A DNA stretch of 64,000 nt from the NCBI GenBank assembly GCA_015062525.1, contig SUUM01000003.1, forward strand, positions 24,012-88,011. The letters are read 5' to 3'. Below the pieces are notes generated by a model. It saw only the letters and a program-made list of their open reading frames with translations, had not been told where the DNA came from and ran no database searches. This DNA is from Alphaproteobacteria bacterium (GTDB lineage Bacteria; Pseudomonadota; Alphaproteobacteria; Rs-D84). The position numbers were made by a program, and so were the translations under genes. Below are positions 5,824-41,814 of the stretch, one piece after another; position 1 is the stretch's first letter; each line of letters opens with the position of its first letter.

Positions 5824-5825
5824 AC

Positions 5826-5850
5826 AAAATCCCCCATCTGGGGGATTTTT
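5826..5850 (+). terminator. Rho-independent terminator after aspS (aaaatcccccatctgggggatttt)
   Basis: Perfect 10-bp stem with a 4-nt loop, followed by a T-run. Confidence 0.6.
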
Positions 5851-5923
5851 AAATTGGAATTCATACCTGTTGGAAAAGATTTTTTTCCACATATAATTTC
5901 GTGCATAAAATAAGAGAGAAAAT

Positions 5924-6274
5924 ATGCACAAAAATATAAATCAATTATGTGATTTGTTGGGACTGAATCAATACCAAAGTGGTAAATTGAAAATGCATTG
6001 TGAACGGTATGATTTTTCCAGACTGCAACAACGTGGTGGGGTGTTGTATGCACCATATGCAACACACGGCATGCGACAATTTTTGGAAAAATTATTGCTG
6101 GGCGCGCGTGCGGATTTAATTGGAAAAAACACAATGCTGTTGCGGGCGCAACGTGGTATTCGGTTTTGTGCAAATGGGTATCATTGTGTACGTGCGGGAC
6201 GATATACATACTATGCAGATGCAATGGGACGCGTAATTTCACGTCGTGAATTTATGGAAAATAAATCCAATTAA
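5924..6274 (+). CDS. Hypothetical protein (116 aa), low confidence
   Basis: ORF with an AGAGAG RBS-like stretch 8 nt upstream. Its 3' end overlaps the end of the convergent AsmA-like gene. No motif recognised. Confidence 0.3.
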   Translation: MHKNINQLCDLLGLNQYQSGKLKMHCERYDFSRLQQRGGVLYAPYATHGMRQFLEKLLLGARADLIGKNTMLLRAQRGIRFCANGYHCVRAGRYTYYADAMGRVISRREFMENKSN

Positions 6275-8745
6275 AACTTGTCATGTGTTTTTACAAATGC
6301 ACGCATAAATCCCGGGTCAATTTGACGCATTATATCCGACAGGGAATAAGCACGTGTATTGTCCGGCATGATACTTAGTTGTATTGTTGCAGGTGTTGGT
6401 GCCGTACCGCGCAATGTTAAATCAAATTCCGCCGTCATAAACCCGTCAGTTATTGCAAAACCACCAACACCGTCTGTGTGGCGCATAGATATTTTTGCAG
6501 GTGCGGTTGTGATAAAATTACCACGTTCATAGTCGCCAATAATCTGCAATTGTTTCAATTTTGTTTCACCACCCGTTAATGCGCGCGCCAATGCATATTC
6601 TGCGTTGAATGAAGTTATGTTTTCTGCGGACGCATAAAATTCATCAAAACCAAAGCCCGATATAACACCACCATCAAATGTTAAATCCAGATTCCCGCGC
6701 AGATTATAATATATGTCATGGGCAATCTGGCCATTGGTGTTCATGGCAATTTGACCCGTTATCATTGTATCACGAATGTTCAATGGCATATTCTCAGACA
6801 GCAACCAACCGTTAATTACAAATTGATTCAGTTGCACAAATATTTCATAGTTTGTTTTATCGCGTTCAATTGTGGCAAGCATATTTCCACGGTCTGCATC
6901 CATAATAGAAAATGTTTGGGCGTTTGGTTTTAACGAATATACAAAATTCTTGTATTCATTGCCGTTGTAAATCAAACTCTGTGCGGACAATGAAATTTTA
7001 GCAGGTATGTTAAATAATATTAACAAGGGTTCATTTGTTCTAAATTCCAATTCTGCATAATTATCTATAAACGCTTGATTTATGAATGCATCAATGGACA
7101 GAACAGGTGTATGCAAGGTGATACTGTCATCGGATGCACTGCCAACAAATTCGTAATCACCCAGACGCAATGTCAGGTTTGATATTTTTCCATCTTGGTA
7201 AAAACCAGAAATAGTATATTTTGAATCATTGATTGATTGTAAATCTATGTTCGGAAACCATGCTTTGAAACTGTTGCCGGTCAAATAAAAATAGTTATCG
7301 TATTGGGATAATTGCCAATTACCACTGTACGGTGTAAATGTCAACATTCCGCCACGCCATGCAAAATCACCACGATCTGATTTCATAAAGTCGGGCAGGA
7401 ATGGAATATTTGCCCCCATGAAATCCAAAGTTTTGTTTTTAGCAAAGTTATATGAAACCCGGGTTTCTTTTTCGTCGATTTCATATATGCCACCAATGTC
7501 TGAAAATTGGAAAGAAACGCGTCCGCGCGACCCAAGTTTTTTGATGTCATTCAAAAATTTGTTCGTTTCTGGCATGGGGGTATCAGACAAAATCGTTATG
7601 TCAAACGTATCGCCATCAACGGAAATATTGCCCGATATATCGCCATACGAAAACACGGCGCAGTTCCATTTTTGTGGTGTCCCAGAAAACAAGCACATAG
7701 AATTTACACCATCAATGGGCATTGTTATCATCAGATTATCCGCACCATCCGCGGAAATCGTGCCACCTGTTATGGCAATGTCATCGATAACAACATTTGC
7801 AATCTGTAGTTTGTCAGATTCGCCAACCGCTTGAATGCGCAGGTGATTAAATTTGTACTTATCAAATTTCAGGTTTCCATAAAAATCAATATTCAGATTG
7901 GTTTTATGTATCAATTTGCCCGGATTTTTTAGAAATGAAAAATCATAATCTATATCTTCGGACACTAATTGAATATTTTTTTCGCCATTGGGTAAAATTT
8001 CTATGTTGCCAGAAATGTGGTCGGTATTTATATTGGTCAGTTTATAACTGTTGCCACCGCTCCATTCAAAATTCGTACTAAGTTTTATTGGACGGGATGT
8101 GCGTGGGGCATCAAATCCAAACCAAGAATTTATATCGTCTGTTTCAATCGATACATGGCCACGAATTGTGCCATCGGAATATATCTGTCCCGTCATCTCA
8201 AGGTTATTGTTTTTGTTTTCTATGCTGAATGTATCACCAGAAAATTCAACATCATATTTGTGATTTGCCGTGCGTATAATTCCATTAAATTCGCCATTGG
8301 AAAATTTTGCGCGGACAATATGAAATTTACGCCCCATAAAGTCTATGTTGCTGTTATAAATTTCAATAGTGTGATTAAAATTTGCGGCGGCCAGTTCGTC
8401 AATTGTTATATCTGCATCATAAACAACAACCGCTTTTTTTAATTCGGCGTGTTCCAGGTCAAAGAAATCGCGAAATGGAATAGATAACATCACGGCGCCG
8501 ATACGGGCGGTTGGTACAACAACATCATGTGCAACAATTGTTGCGCCACCAACAAGACTGAAATGAATGTCGCCATTCAATTTTGCCGGCACCGCCATTT
8601 GTTCATAAATTGATTTTTCGATTACAGGGCGAAATTTATTCAGGGTTATCATAGGCGGAATAATAATAACGGCCAAAACAAACACACCGATGATGCCCAC
8701 CAGCGTCCAGAATATTCTGCGTCTATATCTGGGTTTTAATGCCAT
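6271..8745 (-). CDS. AsmA-family large envelope protein (N-terminal membrane anchor, periplasmic beta-rich body)
   Basis: 824 aa. N-terminal TM segment (FWTLVGIIGVFVLAVIIIPPM) followed by a long low-complexity beta-rich domain, as in AsmA/TamB-like proteins. Confidence 0.5.
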   Translation of the reverse strand: MALKPRYRRRIFWTLVGIIGVFVLAVIIIPPMITLNKFRPVIEKSIYEQMAVPAKLNGDIHFSLVGGATIVAHDVVVPTARIGAVMLSIPFRDFFDLEHAELKKAVVVYDADITIDELAAANFNHTIEIYNSNIDFMGRKFHIVRAKFSNGEFNGIIRTANHKYDVEFSGDTFSIENKNNNLEMTGQIYSDGTIRGHVSIETDDINSWFGFDAPRTSRPIKLSTNFEWSGGNSYKLTNINTDHISGNIEILPNGEKNIQLVSEDIDYDFSFLKNPGKLIHKTNLNIDFYGNLKFDKYKFNHLRIQAVGESDKLQIANVVIDDIAITGGTISADGADNLMITMPIDGVNSMCLFSGTPQKWNCAVFSYGDISGNISVDGDTFDITILSDTPMPETNKFLNDIKKLGSRGRVSFQFSDIGGIYEIDEKETRVSYNFAKNKTLDFMGANIPFLPDFMKSDRGDFAWRGGMLTFTPYSGNWQLSQYDNYFYLTGNSFKAWFPNIDLQSINDSKYTISGFYQDGKISNLTLRLGDYEFVGSASDDSITLHTPVLSIDAFINQAFIDNYAELEFRTNEPLLILFNIPAKISLSAQSLIYNGNEYKNFVYSLKPNAQTFSIMDADRGNMLATIERDKTNYEIFVQLNQFVINGWLLSENMPLNIRDTMITGQIAMNTNGQIAHDIYYNLRGNLDLTFDGGVISGFGFDEFYASAENITSFNAEYALARALTGGETKLKQLQIIGDYERGNFITTAPAKISMRHTDGVGGFAITDGFMTAEFDLTLRGTAPTPATIQLSIMPDNTRAYSLSDIMRQIDPGFMRAFVKTHDKF

Positions 8746-8803
8746 TCTCTACTCCCTTGTATTTTCATTATAATGGATTATACTCTATATTGTGAATAAA
8801 AAA

Positions 8804-10795
8804 ATGAAGCGTGCAGAATTTTATCTTGAAAGTGCTTACAAGCCCATGGGCGACCAACCAACCGCGATTGCTGAATTGGTTGATGGTGTAAATGCCGGCA
8901 AACAATCCCAAGTGTTGCTGGGGGTGACGGGGTCGGGCAAAACGTTCACAATGGCAAATGTTATTGCGGAACTGGGGCGGCCCGCACTGATTATGGCACC
9001 TAATAAAATTCTGGCGGCGCAATTATACACGGAAATGAAGTCGTTCTTTCCGCGAAATCATGTTGAATATTTTGTGTCGTACTATGATTATTATCAGCCC
9101 GAGGCTTATATGCCAACAACCGATACTTATATCGACAAGGACGCATCAATTAACGAACAACTGGACCGCATGCGCCACAGTGCAACGCGCGCCATGCTAG
9201 AAGAACGTGATGTTGTCGTGGTATCATCTGTGTCGTCAATCTATGGTATGGGGTCGCCCGAACAATATGCCGGTATGCGTGTTGTATTAAGGGCGGGCGA
9301 TATTATGTCTATGCGTGATGTTATGCGTTCTTTGGTTGATATTCAATACAAACGCAACGACACAAATTTTGAACGTGGTACATTTCGCGCGCGTGGGGAT
9401 ACGTTGGATTTATTTCCGTCGCATGCAATGGACCGTGGGTGGAAATTATCGTTCTGGGGGGATGAAATCGAAGAGATTTGGGAATTCGATACCCTGACCG
9501 GGGCAAAATTACAAAAACTGGAACGGATTGCTGTTTATCCGAATACACACTATGCAACGCCAATGCCCAGTGTTTTACAGGCTATTTCCCAAATACGCAC
9601 AGACCTAAGGGAACGGTTGGAATACTTTCACGAAAATATGAAATATATCGAAGAACAGCGTCTGCGGGAACGTGTGAACTTTGACATAGAAATGATGGAA
9701 AGTACCGGCACATGTCGCGGGGTGGAAAATTATTCGCGATATTTATCGGGACGGTTGCCCGGACAGCCACCACCGACTTTGTTCGAGTATTTGCCAAAAG
9801 ATGCAGTATTGTTTATTGACGAAAGTCATGTGACGGTTCCACAAATTGGTGCTATGTCGCGGGGCGACCGTGCGCGCAAGGAAACATTGTCCCAGTATGG
9901 GTTCAGATTACCAGCATGCATTGATAACCGACCATTGACTTTTGATGAGTGGGACAATTTGCGACCACAAACAATCTTTGTTTCCGCCACACCCGCAGAA
10001 TGGGAATTGGCACAAGCGCATGGTGTTGTGTCTGAACAGGTTATAAGACCCACGGGATTATTAGACCCGGTGTGTGAAGTGCGCCCCACAGAACATCAGG
10101 TGGATGATTTGTTGGGACAAGTCAAGCAGACATCCGGGCGTGTATTGGTGACGACATTAACAAAAAAAATGGCGGAACAGTTGACCGATTACCTGAATGA
10201 AAATAACGTTCGGGCGCGATATCTGCACAGCGATATTGAAACACTGGAACGCATTGAATTATTGCGCGAATTGCGTATGGGGAAATTTGATGTTCTGGTT
10301 GGTATTAATTTGCTGCGTGAAGGTTTGGATGTGCCAGAATGTGAATTAGTGGCGATTATGGATGCAGATAAAGAAGGATTCTTGCGTTCAACGCGTTCAC
10401 TTATTCAGACAATTGGGCGTGCGGCACGTAATGCAAATGGGCGCGTTATTTTGTATGCTGATAAAATCACAGATTCTATGCGGGCGGCATTGGATGAAAC
10501 GGCGCGCAGACGTGAAAAACAAATGGCATATAATACGGAACACGGCATTACACCAACGACTGTGTCCAAGGCAATATTTGCCGAGGTTGGCGAAAAACAG
10601 GCAAAGACCGACAAGGGTCGCAGATTTGTGTACGATAAATCGGGTGGTGTGATGGATGCAGAATCGTTGCGCAAAGAGATTGTAAAACTGACTAAAAAAA
10701 TGCATAATGCCGCCCAGGACCTTGAATTTGAATTGGCCGCCGAAATACGCGACCAGATTCATAAATTAGAAGATGATTTGTTATTGGTGGAATAA
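8804..10795 (+). CDS. uvrB: Excinuclease ABC subunit B
   Basis: Walker A GVTGSGKTF, helicase motifs, and a C-terminal UVR domain (…EIRDQIHKLEDDLL). The ORF-track start at 8792 is a GTG. The ATG at 8804 (MKRAEFYLESAYKPMGDQP) matches canonical UvrB N-termini. Confidence 0.95.
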   Translation: MKRAEFYLESAYKPMGDQPTAIAELVDGVNAGKQSQVLLGVTGSGKTFTMANVIAELGRPALIMAPNKILAAQLYTEMKSFFPRNHVEYFVSYYDYYQPEAYMPTTDTYIDKDASINEQLDRMRHSATRAMLEERDVVVVSSVSSIYGMGSPEQYAGMRVVLRAGDIMSMRDVMRSLVDIQYKRNDTNFERGTFRARGDTLDLFPSHAMDRGWKLSFWGDEIEEIWEFDTLTGAKLQKLERIAVYPNTHYATPMPSVLQAISQIRTDLRERLEYFHENMKYIEEQRLRERVNFDIEMMESTGTCRGVENYSRYLSGRLPGQPPPTLFEYLPKDAVLFIDESHVTVPQIGAMSRGDRARKETLSQYGFRLPACIDNRPLTFDEWDNLRPQTIFVSATPAEWELAQAHGVVSEQVIRPTGLLDPVCEVRPTEHQVDDLLGQVKQTSGRVLVTTLTKKMAEQLTDYLNENNVRARYLHSDIETLERIELLRELRMGKFDVLVGINLLREGLDVPECELVAIMDADKEGFLRSTRSLIQTIGRAARNANGRVILYADKITDSMRAALDETARRREKQMAYNTEHGITPTTVSKAIFAEVGEKQAKTDKGRRFVYDKSGGVMDAESLRKEIVKLTKKMHNAAQDLEFELAAEIRDQIHKLEDDLLLVE

Positions 10796-10798
10796 AAT

Positions 10799-11197
10799 AT
10801 GAAAGAATATATATTGGAAAATGTTGAACAGATGCGGGCGTGGGCACGGGATTTTGCAAAAAAACTGACCGCGCCATGTGTGGTTGCGTTGCATGGTGAT
10901 TTAGGTATGGGAAAATCAGAGATTGCACGCACAGTAATTCAAACTTTGCGCGGGGCGGACACCGTTGTCCCCAGCCCGACATTTACCATTGTCCAATCGT
11001 ATGATGGGATTTCTCATTTTGATTTATATCGTATAGAAGACGCGTCCGAATTAACAGAAATTGGTTTAGCACACGCCATGGAAAACGATATTACTTTAAT
11101 TGAATGGCCGGAAATTGCACGGGAATTGTTGCCAGAAAACACAATTCATGTGCATATTATTCAACATGCAGACGGACGCAAAATAACAATTAAATAA
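10799..11197 (+). CDS. tsaE: tRNA threonylcarbamoyladenosine biosynthesis protein TsaE (YjeE ATPase)
   Basis: 132 aa. P-loop region VALHGDLGMGKSEIAR plus SPTFTIV. Begins 4 nt after the uvrB stop. Confidence 0.8.
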   Translation: MKEYILENVEQMRAWARDFAKKLTAPCVVALHGDLGMGKSEIARTVIQTLRGADTVVPSPTFTIVQSYDGISHFDLYRIEDASELTEIGLAHAMENDITLIEWPEIARELLPENTIHVHIIQHADGRKITIK

Positions 11198-11221: not shown

Positions 11222-11541
11222 GCGTTATTAGCAACGAATGGCTGGTTTGCATCACAAGGATACCCAACTCACTTGTACCATTATTCAAACCTGGCACCCC
11301 CAACGGGAATCCGCGTGTATAAAAACCCCATGAGTTGCGTTATTAGCAACGAATGGCTGGTTTGCATCACAAGGATACCCAACTCACTTGCACCATTATC
11401 CAAACATGGCACCCCCAACGGGAATCCGCGTGTATAAAAACCCCATGAGTTGCGTTATTAGCAACGAATGGCTGGTTTGCATCACAAGGATACCCAACTC
11501 ACTTGTGCCATTATCCAAACTTGGCACCCCCAACGGGAATC
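11222..11541. repeat. Tandem direct repeat, 115-bp unit x about 2.8 copies. Each unit carries a truncated copy of the tRNA-Glu 3' end (tggcacccccaacgggaatc). The last copy merges into the tRNA-Glu gene.
   Basis: Unit starts at 11222, 11337 and 11452 (period 115), near-identical. The shared 20-mer equals the tRNA acceptor/T-stem 3' strand. Confidence 0.9.
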
Positions 11542-11596
11542 GAACCCGTGTTGCCAGAATGAGAATCTGATGTCCTAACCGCTAGACGATGGGGGC
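11522..11596 (-). tRNA. tRNA-Glu (anticodon CUC)
   Basis: Manual fold gives a 75-nt cloverleaf: GCCCCCA acceptor stem, TCGTCTAGCGGTTAGGAC D-arm characteristic of tRNA-Glu, anticodon loop TTCTCAT, TTCGATT T-loop, and encoded CCA. Confidence 0.8.
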
Positions 11597-13497: not shown

Positions 13498-16400
13498 ATG
13501 AAACATAATATCCTAATGGGTATATCTGTACTACCTGCCCTGTTGGTTATGCCGGCATTTGCCGACACAATCACCGCACGCCAGGTTATAACCACAAACA
13601 CAACATACAACAATCTAACCGCATCCAATATTGCATCCACCACGGCAAATAACGGCGGTGTATTTTATATGGAAAACGTGCCTACAACAACATTAACCTT
13701 TGATGGCACCAGTACCTTTTCAAACAACAGTTTGAATAACGGCGGTATGGGTGGCGCAATTGGAAACGGTTGGTTATCATCCACATCTGGCACCGGCTTT
13801 ACCCCCGGCGGTAAAATCTTATTTAATGGTGATGCCACATTTTCATCTAACACGACCAACAATCCAAACGGTGGTGGCGCAATATTTAATTATGGCAATG
13901 GCACATCCAGCAACCCGGATATAAAATTTAGCGACAATGCAACATTTATAAAAAATGCCGCCAACGGCACATCAAACAACAGTGTATTTTCTGGTGGTGG
14001 CGCAATAAACAACCGTGGTGGCACAATTATTTTTGATGACGAAGCAACATTTTCGGACAACACGTCATCTTATCGTGGTGGCGCGATTTTATCAGGTGGC
14101 GACATAATATTCAATGACACAGCAACATTTTCTGGCAACACAGCCACGACCAGCGGTGGCGCAATTACAATTCTGGGTGGCAATGTACAATTTGCAGACG
14201 ATGCCACATTTACCGGGAACACGGCTGGTGCCGGCGCAGCAATATTTTTAGACAATGCGAACACTCAACTGACCTTTGCGGATACAGCCACATTTTCATC
14301 CAACACCGGCACAGGTATTTTATTAAACAACAATGCATCTAGCACGGTATCTTTTGCCAATGGTGCAACATTTGACCGCAACACCAATCCATCGAACGGA
14401 GCATTGGTCAACACCGGCACAGTAAATGGGACCGGTGGCGACTTTATATTTACCAACAACACAGGCAGTAATGGTGGCGGTCTAAAAAACGCAGGCACCG
14501 TATCAATTGATACATCTGGGCGCATTTTATTTGACACCAACACCACCACCAGCACGGCTGGCGCGCTGGACAATGGTGGCGCGATAACTATGAAATCGGG
14601 CAACATTTCATTTACTAATAACAAATCGAATGCGGGCTATAGCGGGGCAATATTCAACGCGGGCGACCTTAGCCTTTTAGGTGCAACAAACACTTTCTCT
14701 GGCAACATCGCATCCGACACAGGTGCCACAAGCAGTGGTGGTGGCGCAATCCACAATCGTGGCAATTCTGGCACATCAACATTAATCATCGGCACACAAT
14801 CCAGCACAAACACATTTACATCTAACACATCCAGCGCACATGGCGGCGCAATTTTGTCACGTGCATTTAACGGGGCATCCCATGATTCAATTATCACTGT
14901 AAACGGCACAAGCGCATTTCGCAACAACAATGCAGCTTTCAATGGTGGTGCAATCTTGAATGTCACATCAAACGATGGTGGGGTCTCGGAAATAACATTC
15001 AACGGCAACACCTCATTTACAAACAATACTGCTGGCGGTATGGGTGGCGCAATCTATAACAATGACACCATCACCTTTAACGGCAACGCTAATTTTTCTG
15101 GCAACACGGCCGGTGGCACCGCAAATGACATCTATAACGATGGCACAGTGAACATGAACGGCAACACAACAATTGCGGGTGGCATAACAGGCAACGGCAC
15201 ATTAAATGTCGCAAGTGGTAAAACATTGAATATCGGCACAGCCACCCTGACCCAGGGCGCAGTCAACCTGGACGGCACTTTGCTTGCAACACTTCGCACC
15301 GGCAACACCGCCCAAATTAACGTCGCCAACGCGGGCGGCTTTACAGGCACCGGCAACATCAAATTATCCTTTGATTCTGCGGGCACCTATCGTGTATTCG
15401 GCAACGAAACATTTGATAACACAGACATCACCAGTTCGGTCTATGACCTGACCTGGAATGGCGGGGACGTTGTTGCAACGATTAAGTCCGTTGCAGACAT
15501 TGCATCTGAAAACAACCTGTCCAATGATGCGGCACGCACGGTTTCAAACGTATCACAATCATCTTCCAGTCGTTTGAACGACCTGTCTGTTTTAATGCAG
15601 GAAAACCTGTCCACCGGGACCCAGGCTGGACGCGACGCAGTTGAACACGCCGCCCGCGCAATCAATCCAGAAATCGCCCCAATCAACCACTCAATCAATG
15701 CATCATCTCAAAACACATTGTATCAATTGGCAACCGTGCGCTTGAATGAATTCGGCATGGGTCGCAATGGTGGCGACACAACGGTTGACCTTGGTGGCAT
15801 CTGGGCCCAGGGGCTGTATAACAAATCAAAACTGAACGACAGTTTTAACGGGTACACTCGTGGAATATCGGTTGGTTTTGATGGCACAGTGAACAACATC
15901 TTGACGTTGGGTATGGGTTATATGTACGGACATTCAGACATCGGCGCCATTGCCCGCAATACCGAAGTTGACTCACACTCAGTCTTTGCCTATGGTCAAT
16001 ATAAACCCAGCAATTGGTATATGAATGCGATTGTAAATTATACAATGTCCGATTATTCGGAACGCGGCGATGCGTTGGGCGTTTATGTATCAGGGGACTA
16101 TGACCTGAATGCATTTGGCGCGGCTGCAACCATTGGCTATGACTTTATTGGTGGCATAACACCAGAAATGTCGGTTCGGTATCTGCACATTGGTTCTGCG
16201 GAATACACAAATTCATTGGGCATCCGCAACAAAATTGATGGCACAGATTACATGACCGCATCCATTGGCACGCGGTATGGATTCGATATGCTGTTAAACA
16301 ACGGTTGGGTGCTGCGTCCACAAATGCACTATGCATTAAAATACGACCTGATATCAGACGACGGTCGCATCACGGTTGCGATGCCTGGCATCAGCGCGTA

Positions 16401-16560
16401 CAGCCTGGACGGCGAATCATTGTCGCGCATTGCGAACGAAATAGGCATTGGAATTGGCATGACGTACGGCGCATTGAACATGTCATTAAATTATGACATC
16501 GAAGCCCGTGCCGACTACACATCCCAAACCGGCCGTGTAAAATTCAGATATGAATTTTAA
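13498..16560 (+). CDS. Autotransporter (type Va) with a passenger domain built from Pmp-type GGAI/FxxN repeats and a C-terminal 12-strand beta-barrel
   Basis: 1020 aa. Signal peptide MKHNILMGISVLPALLVMPAFA. More than 20 repeats of the pattern (F[ST][GDN]N[TS]…GGAI). C-terminus ends …RVKFRYEF (terminal aromatic). Confidence 0.85.
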   Translation: MKHNILMGISVLPALLVMPAFADTITARQVITTNTTYNNLTASNIASTTANNGGVFYMENVPTTTLTFDGTSTFSNNSLNNGGMGGAIGNGWLSSTSGTGFTPGGKILFNGDATFSSNTTNNPNGGGAIFNYGNGTSSNPDIKFSDNATFIKNAANGTSNNSVFSGGGAINNRGGTIIFDDEATFSDNTSSYRGGAILSGGDIIFNDTATFSGNTATTSGGAITILGGNVQFADDATFTGNTAGAGAAIFLDNANTQLTFADTATFSSNTGTGILLNNNASSTVSFANGATFDRNTNPSNGALVNTGTVNGTGGDFIFTNNTGSNGGGLKNAGTVSIDTSGRILFDTNTTTSTAGALDNGGAITMKSGNISFTNNKSNAGYSGAIFNAGDLSLLGATNTFSGNIASDTGATSSGGGAIHNRGNSGTSTLIIGTQSSTNTFTSNTSSAHGGAILSRAFNGASHDSIITVNGTSAFRNNNAAFNGGAILNVTSNDGGVSEITFNGNTSFTNNTAGGMGGAIYNNDTITFNGNANFSGNTAGGTANDIYNDGTVNMNGNTTIAGGITGNGTLNVASGKTLNIGTATLTQGAVNLDGTLLATLRTGNTAQINVANAGGFTGTGNIKLSFDSAGTYRVFGNETFDNTDITSSVYDLTWNGGDVVATIKSVADIASENNLSNDAARTVSNVSQSSSSRLNDLSVLMQENLSTGTQAGRDAVEHAARAINPEIAPINHSINASSQNTLYQLATVRLNEFGMGRNGGDTTVDLGGIWAQGLYNKSKLNDSFNGYTRGISVGFDGTVNNILTLGMGYMYGHSDIGAIARNTEVDSHSVFAYGQYKPSNWYMNAIVNYTMSDYSERGDALGVYVSGDYDLNAFGAAATIGYDFIGGITPEMSVRYLHIGSAEYTNSLGIRNKIDGTDYMTASIGTRYGFDMLLNNGWVLRPQMHYALKYDLISDDGRITVAMPGISAYSLDGESLSRIANEIGIGIGMTYGALNMSLNYDIEARADYTSQTGRVKFRYEF

Positions 16561-16569
16561 TCTTTCTTG

Positions 16570-16601
16570 AAAACAACCGCCCAAATGGGCGGTTGTTTTT
16601 T
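16570..16601. terminator. Bidirectional hairpin terminator (aacaaccgcccaaatgggcggttgtt) between the autotransporter and the convergent small gene
   Basis: 11-bp stem flanked by an A-run and a T-run. Confidence 0.6.
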
Positions 16602-16610
16602 CAAAACACT

Positions 16611-16862
16611 TTAACGCTTCTTTTCAGCACACATTAAACCAATAACACCCGCACTCATCATCGCTATTGCGGTCAACGCCATATCCTTTATCTTTTTTTC
16701 ACTCATAACTTCCTTCTCATAACGAGCCCGTGTTTCCGCATCAGAATCCTTTAACTCATCACGAAAATCCGCATTTCCAGATGCCGCCAACGCCAGCATA
16801 AAACCAACACCAACAGACATAATAGATAAATTTCTTAACAAAGCCCTTTTCTTTTTATTCAT
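16611..16862 (-). CDS. Small secreted/membrane hypothetical protein (~83 aa from MNKKKRALL…)
   Basis: Signal-peptide-like N-terminus (LLRNLSIMSVGVGFMLALAASGNA) and a C-terminal hydrophobic segment. The longer ORF extends to 16925, but the internal ATG gives the signal peptide. Confidence 0.4.
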   Translation of the reverse strand: MNKKKRALLRNLSIMSVGVGFMLALAASGNADFRDELKDSDAETRARYEKEVMSEKKIKDMALTAIAMMSAGVIGLMCAEKKR

Positions 16863-17042
16863 ATGTAATCCATTTTGTTCAACATCATGCAATAAAATTT
16901 TTGCATAAAAAGTATCGTCAAGCAAAAGTTTTTCTCAAAAAACATTAATATCTTGCGCACAAAAAATATTTTTGTTACAATATCATCACATATAAATGAT
17001 TAAATTTACTACAAAACCTTAGAACTAACAAGGAGATTTTAA

Positions 17043-17492
17043 ATGGCAGAAAACACTAAGAAACCAACAATAAGCCCATCAGAATATCTTTTCATGCAAA
17101 AAGCAAAACGATTTCATGAAGGATTAAATTTTCTTTCTACATCAAATATTCTTTCCACAATGACCGAAGAACAAGTAACAAACATAACAAAACATACATT
17201 TAGTAACTTGTTGAACGACCTTAAAAGTATTCCAGACACCATAATTACCTTTGAACCGGTAACCGGCACAAACCATTTAAACATGTCAATAAAATCTAAA
17301 GGCTCTTCAGCAAAGCTATTAAGCATCGGCCCCAAAGGCGGAATAATTTTAGGCGATAAACTAATTATGGATTCCTATACCAACAGGGAAGATTTGGCTC
17401 TACACAAATCTCTCCATAACGAAGCAATGAAAATATACAATACAAATTTCACAATATATCAGGCAAAAAAACTTCATAATATAAACAGATAA
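17043..17492 (+). CDS. Hypothetical protein (149 aa), AT-rich island gene
   Basis: ORF with AGGAG RBS (caaggagattttaaATG). Own terminator at 17494-17522. No motif recognised. Confidence 0.5.
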   Translation: MAENTKKPTISPSEYLFMQKAKRFHEGLNFLSTSNILSTMTEEQVTNITKHTFSNLLNDLKSIPDTIITFEPVTGTNHLNMSIKSKGSSAKLLSIGPKGGIILGDKLIMDSYTNREDLALHKSLHNEAMKIYNTNFTIYQAKKLHNINR

Positions 17493-17633
17493 AAAATGCC
17501 CCCTACGGGCATTATTTATTTTGGTTGTGCTCGTCATGCAATTCGCGAACTGAATTGGTAGATATTGGGCAAGAAATAATAGATTTTAAACATATTTCTA
17601 TGATATAATTGCAAACATATAAAAGGAGAAGAC

Positions 17634-17993
17634 ATGAAAAAATTATTTTTTATTTTGCCAATCATCACATTGGGTGCATGTGCCCAGGATTACAGCAAAT
17701 ATGATTCCATTTTTGAAGGTTGCGAAAGAATAGAAACGACCGAATTTCATCTGGTTTATAAATGTCCTGCGGATCAAGAATGGGCACAACAAGTAAAACA
17801 ATTACAACCAAACGGCAAATTTAGAGCTGGTGGTCAATTGAATTTGGAAGAATTATATGCTGATACAGAACATGTTTATGCAGAAGTATCATTTAATGAT
17901 CCTGGTGTCTGCAAAGAAGATTTTACAATTCGTACAATGATTGCAAAACCAGTCGAGGGTGGAGACAATTGGGCATTTATCGGTTGCAGATAA
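17634..17993 (+). CDS. Hypothetical lipoprotein (119 aa)
   Basis: Signal peptide plus lipobox (MKKLFFILPIITLGACAQ). RBS AAGGAG. Terminator hairpin at 18017-18042. Confidence 0.55.
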   Translation: MKKLFFILPIITLGACAQDYSKYDSIFEGCERIETTEFHLVYKCPADQEWAQQVKQLQPNGKFRAGGQLNLEELYADTEHVYAEVSFNDPGVCKEDFTIRTMIAKPVEGGDNWAFIGCR

Positions 17994-18368
17994 ACATCAT
18001 TATAAACCGAGTACGAAAGTGGTGGTTTTTCACCACTTTTTTAATTTCAACTTTCGAACTCGGTGGAAATTTATTTTTTTACTCTCTGGAATGCGCACGA
18101 GACCTTGATAAACAATAACCAACCGCGGGGCAAAAACTCTATCAAAAATATCCGTTTTTGCGCGGCCGCGTTTGTTCATCTGCGTATTCGCCATGCGCTT
18201 CGCTCTGGCGTATCCGTGCGCAATCAAAAATTAAACCGGCATAAAAGCCGGTTGAATTTTTGGTTGTGGTGCGTGGGCGAAACGCGAATTTTGATTGTAT
18301 AAAGTCGGATTTTATGGTACGATAAAAAAGTATACAAATAACTAATTATTGGGTAAAAAAGGATAAAA

Positions 18369-19202
18369 ATGACAAAACAGATGCCAGGTTTTCAAGATTA
18401 TAAAAACTCTAAAGAAGAAAAAATAAAGACAGAGCTAGATAAAAAAACAAAAGAAAATGAAAGACAAGAATTCCTTAAGATGCAATTAAAAAAATTTGGG
18501 ACTATATTCAAACATACCAGTAAAAAAGATTTGGCTTTTAATGATTTTTTAAGAACGTTTTTTCAGGTTCAAACAATATCTTTTTTAATTGGCAGTATGG
18601 CATTTCTTTTTTCGAGCCGTACACAGTTTGTTAATGATTATGGAAAAACAACGGGTGGTATTATTAATAATCCGTTGAATGAGATTTATGGTGACGATAT
18701 GTCTTATGGTCAAGCCATAAAAAATGCATATCTGCTTGAAGATTGGCGTAACGACAAAGGAGGTGTATTTCAAGGGATATGCGGTTTGTTAAGTATGATA
18801 ATTGCTTTGGTTTTAGCAACCCGTGAAGGTTCTCGTAAAGTAAAATCTAACATGATAAAATCAAGAACTATTTTGTTGCAATTGGATGAATTAAAAAAAT
18901 ATGGTATAGATGTAAAACAGTTAATTGAAAAATTAGGCCCAGGAGCAGAAAAACTTATTTCTGCAATGTCAGAGAAAGATAGGGGGTATTTTGATAATTT
19001 AGTTGCTGGGGGACTGGATAAAGCAAATTATGAAACGTGTGTTGCTATTGTGTCTGGTTATTTAAAATCACATCCTAAAGAATATGAAAAAGTTGTTGAA
19101 ATCATTGATGAAGCAACCTTGCCAGATGAAATCAAAAAGAAATACGGCAAAGGAAAAACGATTTCGTTTGATGCTGCTAGGGAGATATCGTCAGAAAGAT
19201 AA
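18369..19202 (+). CDS. Hypothetical membrane protein (277 aa; K/E-rich N-terminus, two TM segments), candidate secreted effector
   Basis: ORF with AAAAGGA RBS. TM segments ISFLIGSMAFLF and GICGLLSMIIALVLA. Terminator at 19213-19243. AT-rich composition differs from flanking housekeeping genes. Confidence 0.5.
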   Translation: MTKQMPGFQDYKNSKEEKIKTELDKKTKENERQEFLKMQLKKFGTIFKHTSKKDLAFNDFLRTFFQVQTISFLIGSMAFLFSSRTQFVNDYGKTTGGIINNPLNEIYGDDMSYGQAIKNAYLLEDWRNDKGGVFQGICGLLSMIIALVLATREGSRKVKSNMIKSRTILLQLDELKKYGIDVKQLIEKLGPGAEKLISAMSEKDRGYFDNLVAGGLDKANYETCVAIVSGYLKSHPKEYEKVVEIIDEATLPDEIKKKYGKGKTISFDAAREISSER

Positions 19203-19343
19203 AAATAAATTCAAACTCACCATCTTGGTGAGTTATTTATTTTCGCCCATGCACCACAACCACTTTGAACGATAATATCTGGCAGGGCGGGTTATTGTTA
19301 TAAAAATAATCTTTTTACTAGTCCGAAAGTAAAAAAGCCTTTC

Positions 19344-20444
19344 TTAATCAGAAATTTCTTCAACCATTTTATACAAGTCTTTAAATCTGTATATTGATGG
19401 GCTCTGACCAGTACCTCTTTCTTCTACTTCAAGAATTTTTTTATCTTCTAAGCTTTTTAACAGAGATCTTGCGGTACTTGCTTTAATTCCGGTTTTTTCT
19501 ATAAAATCGGTCGTTTTAAATTTAATTTGCTTAAACAAGAAGTTTAGTACAGGTATACAAAACTGTGTTTTTAAATCCGATATTTCTTCTTCCGTTTTTC
19601 TTCTGATTTCTTTTAATCGTCTAAGAGTGTTTGTTAATACAATGGTTTGTTGTTCTATCGCTGTTATGAAAAAATTAATCCAAGTTTGCCAGTCATTTTC
19701 TTTTGATATTTTTTCTAATGCATTGATGTATTTTGTTCTGTTTATAGAAAAATAATAACTTATATAAAAATATGGCGTAGATAAGATATTATATTTTTTT
19801 AAGAGTATCGGTATCAAAATACGACCAACTCTACCATTTCCGTCCTCAAAAGGGTGTATTAATTCAAAATACGCATGAATAATGGCAGTTTTTATTAAAA
19901 GGTTTTCTGAATGATTTGAGTTTATGAAGTCAATCAAGTTATTCATATATTCTTCTGTGTGCAAATATGATACGGGAGTATAAGTTATTTCTCCGTCATA
20001 TTTATTGCCAATATAATTTTGTTTTTCTTTATATTTCCCTTTTAATTTATCGCCACCCCTAGAATTCGTTAATATAATGGCCTGAATATTTTTAATCAAT
20101 CTACTCGTAATTTTAAAATTGTTATCTTCTGCTTCTTTTATGCAATAACCCAAAGCATCTTTATAATTTTCTATTTCTGTTGCGTCTTTTTCTAATCTTT
20201 CAGATAAATTCTTACCAACTTTATAGTTTAAGATATCTGTAATTGTGGCTATAGTACCTTCTAATCTTGAAGACATTACAGATTCTTGATAAAAAAGTAT
20301 ACTTGTTAATACTTCTGGATAAGGAATAAATTCTACCATGCCATCGTATTTAGCTAATTTCAATAAAGCACTATTAGTATTTTCAGAAAAAGATATATCT
20401 GTCAATATATCTGGAAATTTTTTTAATACAAAAGAATTTGTCAT
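19344..20444 (-). CDS. Fic family protein (AMPylator/FIDO fold), class II, with an N-terminal autoinhibitory SxxxEG motif and a C-terminal winged-helix domain
   Basis: Catalytic motif HPFEDGNGRVGR present. Inhibitory helix motif …MSSRLEGT… about 50 aa from the N-terminus. C-terminal ~80 aa are wHTH-like. Confidence 0.9.
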   Translation of the reverse strand: MTNSFVLKKFPDILTDISFSENTNSALLKLAKYDGMVEFIPYPEVLTSILFYQESVMSSRLEGTIATITDILNYKVGKNLSERLEKDATEIENYKDALGYCIKEAEDNNFKITSRLIKNIQAIILTNSRGGDKLKGKYKEKQNYIGNKYDGEITYTPVSYLHTEEYMNNLIDFINSNHSENLLIKTAIIHAYFELIHPFEDGNGRVGRILIPILLKKYNILSTPYFYISYYFSINRTKYINALEKISKENDWQTWINFFITAIEQQTIVLTNTLRRLKEIRRKTEEEISDLKTQFCIPVLNFLFKQIKFKTTDFIEKTGIKASTARSLLKSLEDKKILEVEERGTGQSPSIYRFKDLYKMVEEISD

Positions 20445-20479
20445 TATAAGACCTTTTATTACAATATTAGCAAAACCAG

Positions 20480-20533
20480 TTGCTTATATTATAAAATAAG
20501 CAATAGAATTAGTCAACATTATAATATAAGCAA
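20480..20533. promoter_or_regulatory. Perfect 15-bp inverted repeat (TTGCTTATATTATAA…TTATAATATAAGCAA) with a 24-bp spacer that holds a third half-site. Candidate operator in the fic promoter region.
   Basis: Read directly from the sequence, 36-90 bp upstream of the fic start codon. TATAAT-like hexamers lie inside each arm. Confidence 0.45.
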
Positions 20534-20734
20534 TTATTTGGTTCGAAAGCGTTGATAAAGAGATAATTTTTCTAAAAATTACTTTCGGATTCACCAAATA
20601 CTTGTATTACAAACAAAAAATGCCTCATTGGGCATTTTGTTAACTATGGTCGGTCGCGCACACAGGGGCCTGCGATGCCCCCCACTAAAAATTTCTTTAA
20701 AGCTCTCTGGAATGCGCTACGTATCCTTGATAAA

Positions 20735-20980
20735 TCATTTCCAAAAATGTCTTTTTGCGAATGCGTGTCCGGAACCCGTTTTAAGATATTGTTCAAAATC
20801 CAATGCAGCGTCTTTGGAACTAAACGCAAAATAATTTACCAATTCCCAAGGTTTATATTTTGCTGTATGTATTGAATATCCCGCATTATGTTGCTTTAAC
20901 CGCTGTTTCAAATCATCAGTTTGCCCGATGTATTTTTGTTCTGGACGGGAAATGCTTTTTATAAGATAGACATAAAACAT
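20735..20980 (-). CDS. GIY-YIG nuclease-family small protein (81 aa; UvrC-N-terminal-like)
   Basis: Motifs YVYLIKS…KYIGQTDDLKQRLKQHN. Located immediately beside tRNA-Gln. Confidence 0.85.
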   Translation of the reverse strand: MFYVYLIKSISRPEQKYIGQTDDLKQRLKQHNAGYSIHTAKYKPWELVNYFAFSSKDAALDFEQYLKTGSGHAFAKRHFWK

Positions 20981-21078
20981 TTACAAGTCCCCCTTCGTTA
21001 AAACTTCGGGCGACACTACTTCGCCTATGCTTCTCGCCTTGTGTGGCCTGCCACACGAAGCCTCGTAGAGGCGAAGTG

Positions 21079-21152
21079 TGGTTGGGGCGCACGGATTCGA
21101 ACCATGATAAAGAGAACCAAAATCTCTTGTCCTACCATTAGACGACACCCCA
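21079..21152 (-). tRNA. tRNA-Gln (anticodon UUG)
   Basis: 74-nt cloverleaf. U1-A72 acceptor pair and UGGGG start typical of bacterial tRNA-Gln. Anticodon loop TTTTGGT, T-loop TTCGAAT, encoded CCA. Confidence 0.8.
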
Positions 21153-21235
21153 ATTGCGCTTGCAATTATACCCACCCCACAAAATTTTGCAATAATAAAA
21201 TATCATCCAAACAAAATCCCCCTGTCGGGGGATTT

Positions 21236-21918: not shown

Positions 21919-22581
21919 TTATACCGCATGCTTTTTCAACAAACTTTGCACCGCCAACGGAAAATCAGTCGCCCGCGCCAAATAAGACCCCGACACTAAC
22001 AAATCCGCCCCCGCGTCCCAACATAACTGGGCTGTTTTGTCGTTAATTCCCCCATCAACAGAAATTGTGAATTTCAAACCATACTTTTTACGCGTCGCGG
22101 CCATCACAGAAATCTTGTGCAACGCGCCCGGGTCAAATGCCTGCCCCGCCGCCCCCGGCGCAACAGACATAACCATAACCTCGTCCACATCGCGCAAAAT
22201 CGGCTTTAACAGCGCAACATTTGAATCTGGATGCAACGCCACCCCAACGCGTCGTCCCGCCGCACGCACATTACGCAACGCCGTCTTGAACCCGGACGTA
22301 TTGGTTGACAATATCACCGTATCTGCCCCCACCGCAATCGCATCCGCCGCCCACACAACCGGACTTTCAGTCATCAAATGCACATGCAAGTGCGCATTGG
22401 TTCGGGCACGAATATTTTTTAACTCGTCAATTCCACCGGCAATTCTGTCTACATAGAACCCATCCATAATATCAACATGAATCATAGAAATCCCACCCGA
22501 CTGAAACAGTGAATACGTTTCCGCCCGTCTCATATCAAAACATAAACTGCTGGGCAAAATCGGAATAAATCTTTGAACTTT
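21919..22581 (-). CDS. rpe: Ribulose-phosphate 3-epimerase domain, in frame with and directly continuing the ftsA reading frame (no own start codon; boundary approximate)
   Basis: …IPILPSSLCFDMRRAETYSLFQSGGISMIHVDIMDGFYVD… aligns with the Rpe N-terminus (IAPSILSADF…HFDVMDNHYVPN). C-terminal TIM-barrel motifs present (…SVDGGIN…). Confidence 0.75.
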   Translation of the reverse strand, partial: KVQRFIPILPSSLCFDMRRAETYSLFQSGGISMIHVDIMDGFYVDRIAGGIDELKNIRARTNAHLHVHLMTESPVVWAADAIAVGADTVILSTNTSGFKTALRNVRAAGRRVGVALHPDSNVALLKPILRDVDEVMVMSVAPGAAGQAFDPGALHKISVMAATRKKYGLKFTISVDGGINDKTAQLCWDAGADLLVSGSYLARATDFPLAVQSLLKKHAV

Positions 22582-23697
22582 CTTGGGCTTGCGATGGAAA
22601 ATTTTTCCAATCCAACTTGTACGTCGCGCCCAGCGTTCATGTCGCGAAATATAACTTTGCCTATGTGCCGATTCCCCATTCCAAACATAATCAGACAGCG
22701 CACGCACCGTTGCATCCGCCGACAGCACTTCGGTCATAACGGCAAATGCATTTTCAATAAAATCACGCAACCCTTCAATCTCGGCACCACCACCGGACAA
22801 AACAATCTTGGTCGGACGATATTTGGTAAAGGACGGCAAACATTGGTCCTTTAATTGCCCGATAATATCAACCAATATCGGCAACACAATGTCATTTACA
22901 TCCCCGCGCGAAAAATCATAGGCACGATCGGCGGGCGCAAATCGGTCCATTTCCTTGGGTACCAGGGATGCCACCGCACGTTTTATCCTGTCTGCAGAAT
23001 CAAAGTCTATATTTAACTTATCAACAATGGCGCGTGTAATATCCGTGCCACCCTTTTCTATTTTCGCATGCCAAACGGGGCCACGGTCGGTCCATATAGA
23101 CGCGCTTGTAAATTGGGCACCAAAATCAACGAACAACGTATTTTGTTTTTCTGCGCGCACAATTGCATTTTGTACAAATTGCGGATCAAACATAGCATCC
23201 GCCTGAATATGCGCGCCGCGCAACTTTTCAAATACCGCATCCACACCATCGCGCGAATAATAAATCACCCCAAACGCAGAAATCAACTGCCGGTCAACAT
23301 GTCCCAGGGGCGACACCATATTTCGCGCCTGGGGCGCATCATACCGCAGTGGCACAATATGCATTGGGAAAAATCCGTCCGCGGGTTTAATTTGCGAGAT
23401 TTGATTTCTAACATCCGTCATAGTAATCTTGTGTTCCCCACCCCAAACGGTACTTTTCGCACACATTTCATATTTTGATATACCAAAATTCCCCGTGATA
23501 AAGGCACTATCAAAATGGGAACCGATTTGTTTTTCCAATTCATCCACAACGGACTTAATCGCAAATACCGTATCATAACTGTCCATTGAAAAGAACGCAG
23601 ATTTATCAATCTTTGCGCTACGCACACGATGTGCAATACCACGCACACCACACGTGCCAATATCAAGACACAAAAAAGACGAATCAAATAAATTCAT
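22582..23697 (-). CDS. ftsA: Cell division protein FtsA (actin-like ATPase), lacking its own stop codon and reading through into rpe
   Basis: LDIGTCGVRGIA (phosphate 1), FVDFGAQFTSASIW, GGTDITRAI, IVLSGGGAEIEGL, and a C-terminal amphipathic membrane-targeting helix (WARRTSWIGKIFHRKPKK). ftsQ lies immediately upstream. Confidence 0.7.
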
Positions 23698-40996: not shown

Positions 40997-41073
<77 letters not shown>

Positions 41074-41390: not shown

Positions 41391-41765
41391 TTACCTTTTA
41401 ATATAAACAAAACCCTGGGGGGCGGTACGAACACCAAAGTCAGATAATGGACGTGGTACGTCAAACCTTAACACATGCCCCAGTTTATATGCATATGCAA
41501 TATTACCCCCACTAAAATAAGAATCAAAAAAACCGCGGTCAATCCCCGCTGCATTGCATGTCCGCGCCCAAACATCATCTGGGGTCCCTGAAATAATGCC
41601 ACATACATCCACAGCACCCACAACCGAACAAATCGGACGCGTGGCATATATGACAATTTTATCCACATTACACAGCGCAACACGACGCCGAAATTCAAAT
41701 TTCTTGTCGCCGGAAAAAATTCTTTCTATAAATTCTGGTTTTATTGCCAATAATATTGTTGCCAT
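41391..41765 (-). CDS. ASCH-domain protein (PUA-like fold)
   Basis: GxKxxExR motif (SGDKKFEFRRR). About 125 aa. The ATG at 41765 is preferred over the ORF-track TTG start. Confidence 0.55.
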   Translation of the reverse strand: MATILLAIKPEFIERIFSGDKKFEFRRRVALCNVDKIVIYATRPICSVVGAVDVCGIISGTPDDVWARTCNAAGIDRGFFDSYFSGGNIAYAYKLGHVLRFDVPRPLSDFGVRTAPQGFVYIKR

Positions 41766-41814
41766 AAATTCAACCTTTGAATACAATTATACACAACAAC
41801 AAATGGAACAAAAA

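Follow-up and report, generated by a model that had tools for sequence, protein, structure and literature searches.

Additive, tRNA-linked islands have been described in Prochlorococcus as tycheposon islands, which arise by site-specific recombination in the T-loop-to-CCA segment of tRNA genes (bioRxiv 10.1101/2020.12.28.424599). The Fic protein SoFic binds specifically, as a dimer, to the 100 bp directly preceding the gene that encodes it (bioRxiv 10.64898/2026.07.09.737422), and Sofic, which mediates phage defence by abortive infection and is toxic in Escherichia coli, is countered by a 47-amino-acid (aa) downstream protein, AS1 (PMC12249575). Relatives of both systems were found together in a 64,000-nt stretch of DNA (referred to here as the window) from an Alphaproteobacteria bacterium of the GTDB order-level lineage Rs-D84 (assembly GCA_015062525.1, contig SUUM01000003.1, forward strand, positions 24,012 to 88,011). 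A reference-genome scan using the neighbouring CarD protein assigned the window to Candidatus Enterousia, a group of uncultured gut Alphaproteobacteria of the order Rs-D84 with genomes mostly below 1 Mb and a probable dependence on a partner (PMC12306168). Next to a tRNA-Gln gene of the window lies a real, strain-variable cassette array, which carries a SoFic-type fic gene, a GIY-YIG mini-gene preceded by a structured leader, and three hypothetical genes (p277, p119 and p149). In this genome, from a group with genomes of under 1 Mb, the region is likely to be a flexible islet of the additive, tRNA-linked type. The best-supported reading is that of a known kind of island, which takes an unusual form in this reduced genome, with miniature cassettes and without an integrase.

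The island was delimited as a low-GC (guanine-plus-cytosine) variable segment at 16863 to 21078, between a conserved gene for an 83-aa membrane protein and the 3' end of tRNA-Gln. The anchoring tRNA-Gln(UUG) gene (21079 to 21152, minus strand), which has a genome-encoded CCA, was identified by ARAGORN and by Rfam (tRNA, 57.7 bits). The GC content was 0.324 for the island, 0.425 for the window and 0.274 for the fic gene, and a plot by kilobase detected values of 0.31 to 0.34 at 17 to 21 kb versus 0.46 to 0.50 in the kilobases on either side. Loci used for comparison are denoted by L-numbers, and every comparison genome was a metagenome-assembled genome (MAG) or a metagenome contig. In L002, the closest relative found (CarD 97% identical), homology to the window extended through CarD and tRNA-Gln to position 21079, the last base of the tRNA, and restarted at 16862. 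Only ~211 bp separates these two points in L002, indicating that this locus is an empty site in which homology breaks exactly at the tRNA 3' end. The same CarD-tRNA-Gln synteny was present in L006 and L080 with entirely different genes at the island site, while the contigs of L001, L005, L041 and L047 stop just past tRNA-Gln, as expected for a strain-variable region. A first-pass annotation of this DNA had proposed an accessory island of lower GC than its flanks which ended at tRNA-Gln with a GIY-YIG gene beside it, and each of these points was upheld: the GIY-YIG open reading frame (ORF) lies at 20735 to 20980 on the strand of the tRNA, and the drop in GC, the empty site in L002 and the different cargo in L006 and L080 spoke against a segment of genome-average composition and conserved synteny.

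The left edge of the island was found at 16863 and not, as first proposed, at 16562. A listed ORF of 104 aa (16611 to 16925) was over-extended; the real gene, which is present in L002, has its start codon at 16862, where homology to L002 resumes, and belongs to the conserved flank. Its 83-aa product (16611 to 16862, minus strand) is a protein with two transmembrane (TM) segments, hydrophobic at aa 7 to 26 and 60 to 80, with homologues in L002 (65%) and L080 (34%). A Pmp-like autotransporter gene (13498 to 16560, plus strand) adjoins the island as a conserved flank, yet it diverges fast among relatives, with identities of 84%, 73% and 65% where CarD keeps 88 to 97%, and is missing from most Enterousia loci. 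Given this divergence and patchy presence, the variable zone may reach into the autotransporter gene.

Copies of the tRNA end cut the island into seven modules, namely, the leader and GIY-YIG gene, fic, p277, a second GIY tail, p119, a displaced terminator and p149. At the junctions lie copies of the tRNA terminator and decayed repeats of the terminal tRNA segment, from the T-loop to the CCA. In L002, L005 and L080, the CCA is followed at once by AAATAAA and a hairpin (ATGCCC...GGGCAT). In the window this terminator is now 3.5 kb away from the tRNA, at 17489 to 17527, where the sequence read from 17527 to 17489 was 92 to 95% identical to that directly after the tRNA-Gln CCA in L005 and L080; the minus-strand junction at 17489 to 17551 comprises this displaced original terminator (hairpin 17495 to 17513) and a decayed tRNA-Gln 3' half (17522 to 17551). 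The GIY-YIG module ends in TTTATCAAGGATACGTAGCGC (20714 to 20734, minus strand), which copies the T-stem of tRNA-Gln but has a shorter loop and is truncated on its 3' side, as judged by comparison with the tRNA itself (...TTTATCATGGTTCGAATCCGTGCGC...) and with the intact tails of L141 and L113, which continue to ...CCCCAACCA and the host terminator. Beyond this tail, a degenerate tRNA 3' end, GTGCGCGACCGACCA (20647 to 20661), precedes a duplicate of the terminator hairpin of the tRNA type (20617 to 20638), and this junction (20617 to 20661, minus strand) was homologous to the junctions of L005 and L080 composed of ...CCCCTGTGTGCGCCCCAACCA and a terminator. The fic module is closed by the partial tRNA 3' end TTTCGCCCATGCACCACAACCA (19241 to 19262, plus strand), which is convergent with fic and is the inverted partner, 95% complementary, of another partial tRNA 3' end at 18261 to 18282; the latter is followed by a terminator hairpin at 18234 to 18253 (junction 18234 to 18282, minus strand). 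In L084, a true tRNA-Gln 3' end is fused directly to a homologue of window positions 18272 to 18037 (88.6% identity), with fic thereafter. A second, decayed copy of the GIY-module tail, TTTATCAAGGTCTCGTGCGCATTCCAGAGAG..., occupies 18049 to 18122 (minus strand; direct repeats D2 and D8, 77 to 80% identical to 20688 to 20744); it was 80% identical to the L080 tail and contains no intact ORF. The longer segment 18049 to 18230 was considered as a decayed GIY-YIG gene, but only a ~56-nt tail was convincingly homologous and a coding remnant is doubtful. Direct repeats of the tRNA 3' part, of the kind left as att remnants, were thus present at 20647 to 20661, 18261 to 18282 and 17522 to 17551, with an inverted copy at 19241 to 19262. 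Terminator-like hairpins were about threefold enriched, with 14 detected versus 4.8 ± 2.4 expected in shuffled sequences. The earlier claim of a separate hairpin terminator for every gene stood as regards this enrichment but failed for fic, which has no terminator of its own and shares the bidirectional hairpin at 19214 to 19234; that account did not mention the tRNA-end repeats that delimit the modules, the exchange of modules among strains or the structured GIY-YIG leader.

Shuffling was most apparent for the fic module, which was detected with a 99% identical protein and 98 to 99% identical DNA in four other assemblies and in four neighbourhoods (L081 to L084). Homology to the window always stopped exactly at 19240, the inverted tRNA edge, and started at 20636, 20608 or 20576, and these alignments show the fic module to be a real unit. 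More distant homologues of Fic or p277 were also located directly at tRNA 3' ends: a real tRNA-Thr gene is convergent with fic 50 nt past the fic stop codon in L085 to L087, the tRNA in L169 is tRNA-Pro, with genes for a large serine recombinase and a restriction-modification system after it, and in L090 it is tRNA-Gln(ctg). The tRNA-Pro-linked island of L169 (1788 to 13104), with its large serine recombinase, type I restriction-modification system and RhuM, is a classical defence-island context. Serine recombinases were seen beside a Fic or p277 homologue in other lineages, in this segment of L169 and in L088 (14714 to 17098) and L090 (4608 to 5207). A "248-aa" neighbour of several cargo genes was rejected as a shared mobility gene, as it represented three unrelated families.

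The empty site, the junction repeats and the shuffling were observed directly; the recombination mechanism that we infer is one in which DNA would repeatedly insert or recombine at the tRNA-Gln(UUG) 3' end. Each event would leave a copy of the last ~16 to 30 nt of the tRNA, from the T-loop to the CCA, and in many cases of its terminator as well, older modules would be pushed outward, and strains would reshuffle the modules through the repeated junctions. The locus resembles additive tRNA-linked islands with partial tRNA repeats, such as the tycheposon islands and those formed by tandem accretion of integrative elements, in having a hypervariable island at a tRNA 3' end of a streamlined genome, with heterogeneity at the level of strains and with partial tRNA copies between modules, the newer ones being near the tRNA and the older remnants farther away. 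It differs from such islands in that no tyrosine recombinase or integrase was found in or near the island and that the modules are tiny (0.1 to 1.4 kb), with the leader and GIY-YIG mini-gene in the place of a tRNA-proximal integrase. Integron arrays are similar in their small single-gene cassettes, a recurring, imperfectly palindromic element of ~100 nt and a strain-variable order. In contrast to integrons, the array has no intI or attI, its cassettes have their own promoters and terminators and occur in both orientations, and its junction element carries a mimic of the tRNA 3' end; attC-type core sites were not seen, although no search was aimed at them. The locus shows one compact way in which streamlined genomes of <1 Mb can still exchange accessory genes, namely, through an array of cassettes beside a tRNA, where strains swap modules, that of the SoFic anti-phage toxin among them, with near-identical sequences and no recombinase seen.

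Duplication of tRNA 3' ends was not confined to tRNA-Gln. Among 51 tRNA genes in Enterousia-type loci, 7 were followed, 115 to 174 nt downstream, by a perfect 16-nt repeat of the respective 3' end, and no gene had such a repeat upstream; the seven include tRNA-Glu and tRNA-Met of the window. Duplication of tRNA 3' ends is a genome-wide phenomenon. In the window, tRNA-Glu (11522 to 11596) is followed at 11292 to 11521 (minus strand) by two full tandem units of 115 nt and a third, partial unit; at the end of each full unit, the 3' end of tRNA-Glu is repeated perfectly over 20 nt, and L002 has one unit. Downstream of tRNA-Met (40997 to 41073), the segment 41074 to 41240 contains a 151-nt insert in which a terminator and, in inverted orientation, a T-arm-like motif, GGATTTGAACC, are present; a 20-nt repeat of the tRNA-Met 3' end, without mismatches, and a further terminator close the insert. 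Flanked mini-inserts of 115 to 174 nt were also present in related loci at Pro, Tyr, Met and Glu tRNAs, and some of these share internal motifs. Another insert of ~170 nt, unrelated to the leader (ATATTCAAACGCACCC...GAGGGAATTGA followed by GTGCGCCCCAACCA), lies between tRNA-Gln and a second 3'-end copy in L047 (10748 to 10921) and in L144, upstream of the leader at ~3750.

The module nearest the tRNA consists of a 98-nt leader (20981 to 21078, minus strand) and the GIY-YIG gene. The leader starts directly after the tRNA CCA, with CACUUCGCC..., and has a GC content of 0.55 and a fold z-score of -2.9. Four helices, P1 to P4, were assigned: P1 is a long-range helix which begins at, or takes in, the last base or bases of the CCA and is followed by the hairpins P2 and P3, and P4 is the last hairpin, with a symmetric GAA/GAA internal loop and a purine-rich 3' strand located 5 to 12 nt before the ATG. 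Analysis of 19 distinct leader copies detected pairing in 93% of cells, compared with 28 to 47% when partners were slid, and 8 pairs changed on both sides. Many U-G pairs were present, on the sense strand only, and distant copies swap whole helices by compensatory change while keeping P1, P2 and P4. Searches of the window leader and of nine diverse loci against Rfam 15 gave no leader match at an E value of ≤1; only the upstream tRNAs matched. A known ribozyme class (hepatitis delta virus-like, hatchet and others) was considered for the leader and was unsupported, there being no Rfam match.

A metagenome scan with a 19-nt pattern returned 75 loci, of which about 25 were retained as true leaders by a hidden Markov model filter, the rest being chance matches; these copies came from a range of metagenome samples, and the contexts of distant GIY-YIG homologues added three more. 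Wherever an intact tRNA was upstream, the leader started exactly after the CCA (...ACCA followed by CACUUCGC). At least nine tRNA genes were abutted in this way (Gln-ttg, Gln-ctg, Thr-ggt, Thr-tgt, Pro-tgg, Leu-cag, Gly-gcc, Ser-gga and Val-tac), and the junction of tRNA, leader and GIY-YIG gene was reproduced in the independent assemblies L006, L041 and L141. Leader copies with or without the GIY-YIG ORF also recurred within Enterousia arrays (L080, L081, L082 and L084), each after a partial tRNA end. The unit was absent from L002, and at matching loci the GIY-YIG gene was present in L113 and L152 but not in L167 and L161, respectively. A target-site duplication was sought at the leader-GIY-YIG copies and was detected only for two minimal insertions linked to tRNA-Gln, in L141 and L113, which are flanked by perfect 16-nt copies of the local tRNA end. 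No recombinase was recurrent around 30 leader loci. In the literature searched, no description was found of tRNA-linked GIY-YIG elements or of an RNA motif upstream of GIY-YIG genes.

The GIY-YIG gene (20735 to 20980, minus strand) encodes a stand-alone nuclease domain of 81 aa and of the SLX1/UPF0213 type (Pfam PF01541, 2.2e-16), and the closest solved structures were the SLX1 nuclease domain (3e-6) and BH0048/1zg2. Homologues of 80 to 81 aa formed 254 clusters, with identities of 60 to 95% among the 120 listed. Upstream of tRNA-Gln, a promoter scan detected a sigma-70-like promoter, TTGCAA-16-TATAAT (21165 to 21192, minus strand; 10 of 12 matches). Apart from this tRNA promoter, the scan detected no promoter-like site before the GIY-YIG gene, and nothing resembling a terminator was detected on the minus strand from 21152 to 20638. 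The leader and the GIY-YIG gene thus probably depend on the tRNA-Gln promoter alone. As it is the sole promoter-like site and no terminator intervenes, the simplest reading predicts that the GIY-YIG gene, which has no promoter of its own, is expressed by read-through, most likely from the tRNA promoter, with a leader that limits its translation. The 3' strand of P4, GGGGGAC, is likely to be the Shine-Dalgarno sequence of the GIY-YIG gene, and the last helix of the leader would hide this ribosome-binding site and so probably throttle translation.

In phage homing endonuclease genes, an RNA hairpin is known to cover the ribosome-binding site, and the hairpin predicted over that of the window GIY-YIG gene is a point of likeness. 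Free-standing GIY-YIG homing genes (T4 seg and I-TevI) further resemble the window gene in their GIY-YIG domain and in an intergenic, presence/absence-polymorphic location. The differences are that the window protein, at 81 aa, is highly conserved and consists of the catalytic domain only, with no linked DNA-binding domain, and that its gene is always fused, in a predicted transcriptional sense, to a tRNA via a conserved structure of ~100 nt.

The tRNA-abutting unit is widespread and conserved, has no Rfam match and was not described in the literature searched. We tentatively propose, at something short of even confidence, that the leader and the 81-aa GIY-YIG gene represent an undescribed class of element specific to tRNA 3' ends in host-associated Alphaproteobacteria. 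Such an element would be either an integrase-free, mobile seeder of cassette arrays, driven by the nuclease or by the RNA, or an RNA, possibly self-processing between the CCA and the following C, which couples a nuclease gene to tRNA transcription. If the unit were an insertion engine or a self-processing RNA, it would constitute a new mode of tRNA-gene targeting and of selfish-gene expression from tRNA promoters.

An explanation of the island by this unit alone, in which the leader and GIY-YIG gene are a selfish mobility engine whose SLX1-like nuclease and/or leader directs insertion after the CCA, is possible but doubtful. Leaders without the GIY-YIG gene would then be non-autonomous derivatives mobilised in trans, and growth of the island through such nucleated insertions is to be regarded with the same reserve. 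The identical leader start, ...ACCA followed by CACUUCGC, after at least nine tRNA genes argues for an engine of this type, as do the one-locus polymorphisms (L002 versus the window, L006 and L041; L113 versus L167; L152 versus L161), the recurrence between cassettes of leader copies preceded by partial tRNA ends and the failure to find a linked recombinase. Moreover, the unit holds the tRNA-proximal spot in which integrative elements usually have their integration module. However, the nuclease is an 81-aa catalytic domain without a DNA-binding domain, and the protein, with 60 to 95% identity among the 120 homologues listed and usually a single copy per locus, has the appearance of a maintained rather than a decaying homing gene. 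Since flanked mini-insertions exist at tRNA-Glu, Met, Pro and Tyr without a leader or GIY-YIG gene, the insertion process needs neither.

The strong purifying selection on the GIY-YIG protein would also fit an ordinary, vertically inherited gene which rides on tRNA transcription, the leader serving for translational or processing control and the variety of tRNAs resulting from rare rearrangements. The covariation of P4, which sequesters the purine-rich, Shine-Dalgarno-like strand 5 to 12 nt before the ATG, is consistent with such a role, as is the location of the gene among housekeeping genes without flanking repeats in distant lineages. Ordinary rearrangement, however, would not rebuild an identical post-CCA junction at nine tRNA genes. 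The unit is also absent from the closest relative, L002, and within the L081 array the leader is seen three times and the GIY-YIG gene twice, one of these genes being truncated at the contig start. An origin by vertical inheritance is thus considered unlikely.

The main cargo of the islet is the fic gene. The fic ORF (19344 to 20444, minus strand) encodes a protein of 366 aa with matches to Pfam Fic (3.6e-18) and Fic_N (3.2e-17). The catalytic motif HPFEDGNGR, starting at H197, lies at aa 197 to 205 within the Pfam Fic match, and the inhibitory motif SSRLEG (aa 58 to 63; S58, E62 and G63) is present in the same polypeptide, where it aligns opposite SSEIEN of SoFic in a phmmer alignment to 3eqx/3zcn. 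Both motifs, of which the second had been given as an N-terminal SxxxEG, therefore held up in the Pfam and SoFic alignments. The PADLOC model for the anti-phage SoFic matched at 7e-91 and covered residues 5 to 362 of 366, including the C-terminal winged helix, and the SoFic structure 3eqx was aligned over residues 30 to 344 (2.8e-28). The agreement between Pfam, PADLOC and the solved structure supported the assignment to class II and the comparison with SoFic that had been suggested. As judged from sequence, the protein is a full-length, class II, SoFic-type Fic, a relative rather than a demonstrated equivalog.

Upstream of fic, the perfect 15-bp inverted repeat (20480 to 20494 and 20519 to 20533) and third half-site noted previously were both real, and the arrangement was refined to four copies of a 16-nt box, TTGCTWATWTTRTAAT, which form a predicted operator array at the promoter (20458 to 20533, minus strand). 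None of 200 first-order Markov sequences, in which dinucleotide transition frequencies were kept, reached a 15-bp repeat, the maximum being 14. Three direct copies, at 20518 to 20533, 20488 to 20503 and 20458 to 20473, are exactly 30 bp apart and the inverted copy is at 20480 to 20495. The boxes bracket the -35 sequence (TTGACT, 20516 to 20511) and include the -10 sequence (TATAAT, 20493 to 20488). These copies carry 0 to 2 mismatches, while elsewhere in the window only matches with 3 mismatches were found (1.8 expected by chance). The boxes were partly conserved upstream of fic genes with 83% and 74% identity, where homology begins at ~20533 to 20535, the outermost box. By analogy, the four-box array fits the published binding of SoFic to its own promoter.

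Fic would be a dimeric AMP-transferase by homology, held in check by its own Glu62, and would probably repress its own promoter through binding of the C-terminal winged helix to the four 16-nt boxes. Activation of Fic, with phage infection as one example of a trigger, would lead to AMPylation of EF-Tu or a comparable target, so that translation stops, resulting in abortive infection. The full-length PADLOC match and the alignment to solved structures are shared with MloA/SoFic of Shewanella oneidensis and Sofic of E. coli. The window protein differs from these in scoring 131 of 550 equivalog bits, in the lack of an AS1-like downstream ORF and in its membership of a separate clade, which comprises about 45 clusters in gut Alphaproteobacteria; moreover, AMPylation of EF-Tu, toxicity, phage defence and promoter binding are known for the S. 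oneidensis and E. coli proteins and are putative for this Fic. Members of the clade were 50 to 99% identical and came from gut metagenomes and Alphaproteobacteria MAGs, with identities beyond it of ≤41%; relatives with ~33% identity (MloA) were located in temperate phages. No AS1-like antitoxin ORF comparable to that of Sofic was found downstream of fic, and a 21-aa TTG ORF in this position was rejected as a candidate. The statement that Fic needs no antitoxin was not sustained, as it followed only from the definition of the class and E. coli Sofic is toxic and countered by AS1 (PMC12249575).

The three hypothetical genes are all on the plus strand. p277 (18369 to 19202) encodes a 277-aa membrane protein with a hydrophobic segment at aa 130 to 152 and is followed by the hairpin at 19214 to 19234. 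Its 37 homologous clusters (36 to 91% identity), none with a Pfam domain, were restricted to the lineage, and the named homologues were hypothetical proteins of Alphaproteobacteria or Proteobacteria MAGs; common to the family are a charged N-terminal region, a hydrophobic segment or two and a C-terminal domain of very high conservation. An AlphaFold 2 model of p277 had a predicted local distance difference test (pLDDT) value of 65, and neither a Foldseek search of the PDB nor a profile search of PDB sequences gave a meaningful match. p119 (17634 to 17993) encodes a predicted lipoprotein of 119 aa with a signal peptide and the lipobox LGAC (N-terminus MKKLFFILPIITLGAC) and is followed by a terminator at 18015 to 18040; an 85% identical homologue was detected at an unrelated position in L064, another Enterousia genome. 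The 149-aa product of p149 (17043 to 17492) is a near-orphan, matched at an E value of ≤1e-3 by 5 representative proteins among 1.84 billion, and has no signal peptide, TM segment or hydrophobic window. The description of all three as secreted or membrane proteins was thus correct for p277 and p119 but not for p149. Similarly, the reported lack of recognisable homology was confirmed for curated families, with no match to any of the three in Pfam, NCBIfam, PHROGs or PADLOC scans, but not for homologues in general, which were found for each protein.

Some Fic proteins are secreted effectors. A role for Fic and the three hypothetical proteins as host-directed secreted effectors of a host-dependent bacterium, as originally suggested, would be in keeping with this, with the neighbouring autotransporter gene and with the reduced genome of Enterousia and its probable partner dependence (PMC12306168). 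However, the architecture of Fic is that of a complete, cytoplasmic SoFic, including the DNA-binding tail, and is accompanied by predicted autoregulatory boxes and the PADLOC match of 7e-91, and Pfam detected no secretion or translocation domain in it; p149 has no signal, and among the families listed for the window there were no type IV secretion system genes, only components of type II secretion or type IV pili. The effector proposal consequently received no support and is regarded as highly improbable, p277 and p119 being envelope-like and Fic matching anti-phage SoFic; p277 and p119 look like variable, lineage-specific envelope proteins. An ancestral island deleted in L002, or a contig mis-assembled from several strains, is barely credible, for although only one empty-site genome was found and the data were MAG derived throughout, the original tRNA terminator and partial tRNA ends nested in the island constitute an insertion footprint, the GC content is 10 points under that of the flanks, other species have unrelated cargo at the site and the junction of tRNA, leader and GIY-YIG gene is repeated in L006, L041 and L141.

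Several points weigh against our interpretation of the islet and its two main modules. No recombinase domain, and hence no integrase, was detected by Pfam in any island ORF, and none was present among the 25 families listed, of 58 matched, for the other window ORFs, where one could still be present. The leader-GIY-YIG copies at Thr, Pro, Leu, Ser and Val tRNAs have no clean flanking repeats. Co-transcription of the GIY-YIG gene with the tRNA, its translational control and the binding of Fic to the operator boxes are all points that we infer. The score of Fic against the NCBIfam SoFic equivalog was 131.1 bits, below the cut-off of 550, and because this cut-off was not reached, the target and trigger may differ from those of SoFic in S. 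oneidensis or E. coli. With comparisons drawn from MAGs and metagenome contigs, some gene arrangements could also mix strains.

Other observations were made in the window away from the island. Lowered GC values of 0.35 to 0.37 were also detected in the kilobases 7001 to 8000, 42001 to 43000, 46001 to 47000 and 49001 to 50000; the ORFs at 41554 to 42402 and 48411 to 48992 encode small outer-membrane beta-barrel proteins, and that at 42613 to 43227 has no Pfam match. A 7-kb block, AspRS-AsmA-UvrB-TsaE (4054 to 11197), is inverted between lolE/FtsX-like genes and tRNA-Glu, while in L001, L006 and L041 this block lies directly upstream of FtsQ; the displacement represents either a genome-specific rearrangement or a mis-join. 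Finally, a single ORF of 592 aa (21919 to 23697, minus strand) encodes an FtsA-like N-terminal part fused to a complete ribulose-phosphate 3-epimerase domain (Pfam 4.5e-41), and this full-length fusion was conserved at 85 to 95% identity in L001, L002, L006, L041, L047 and L080.

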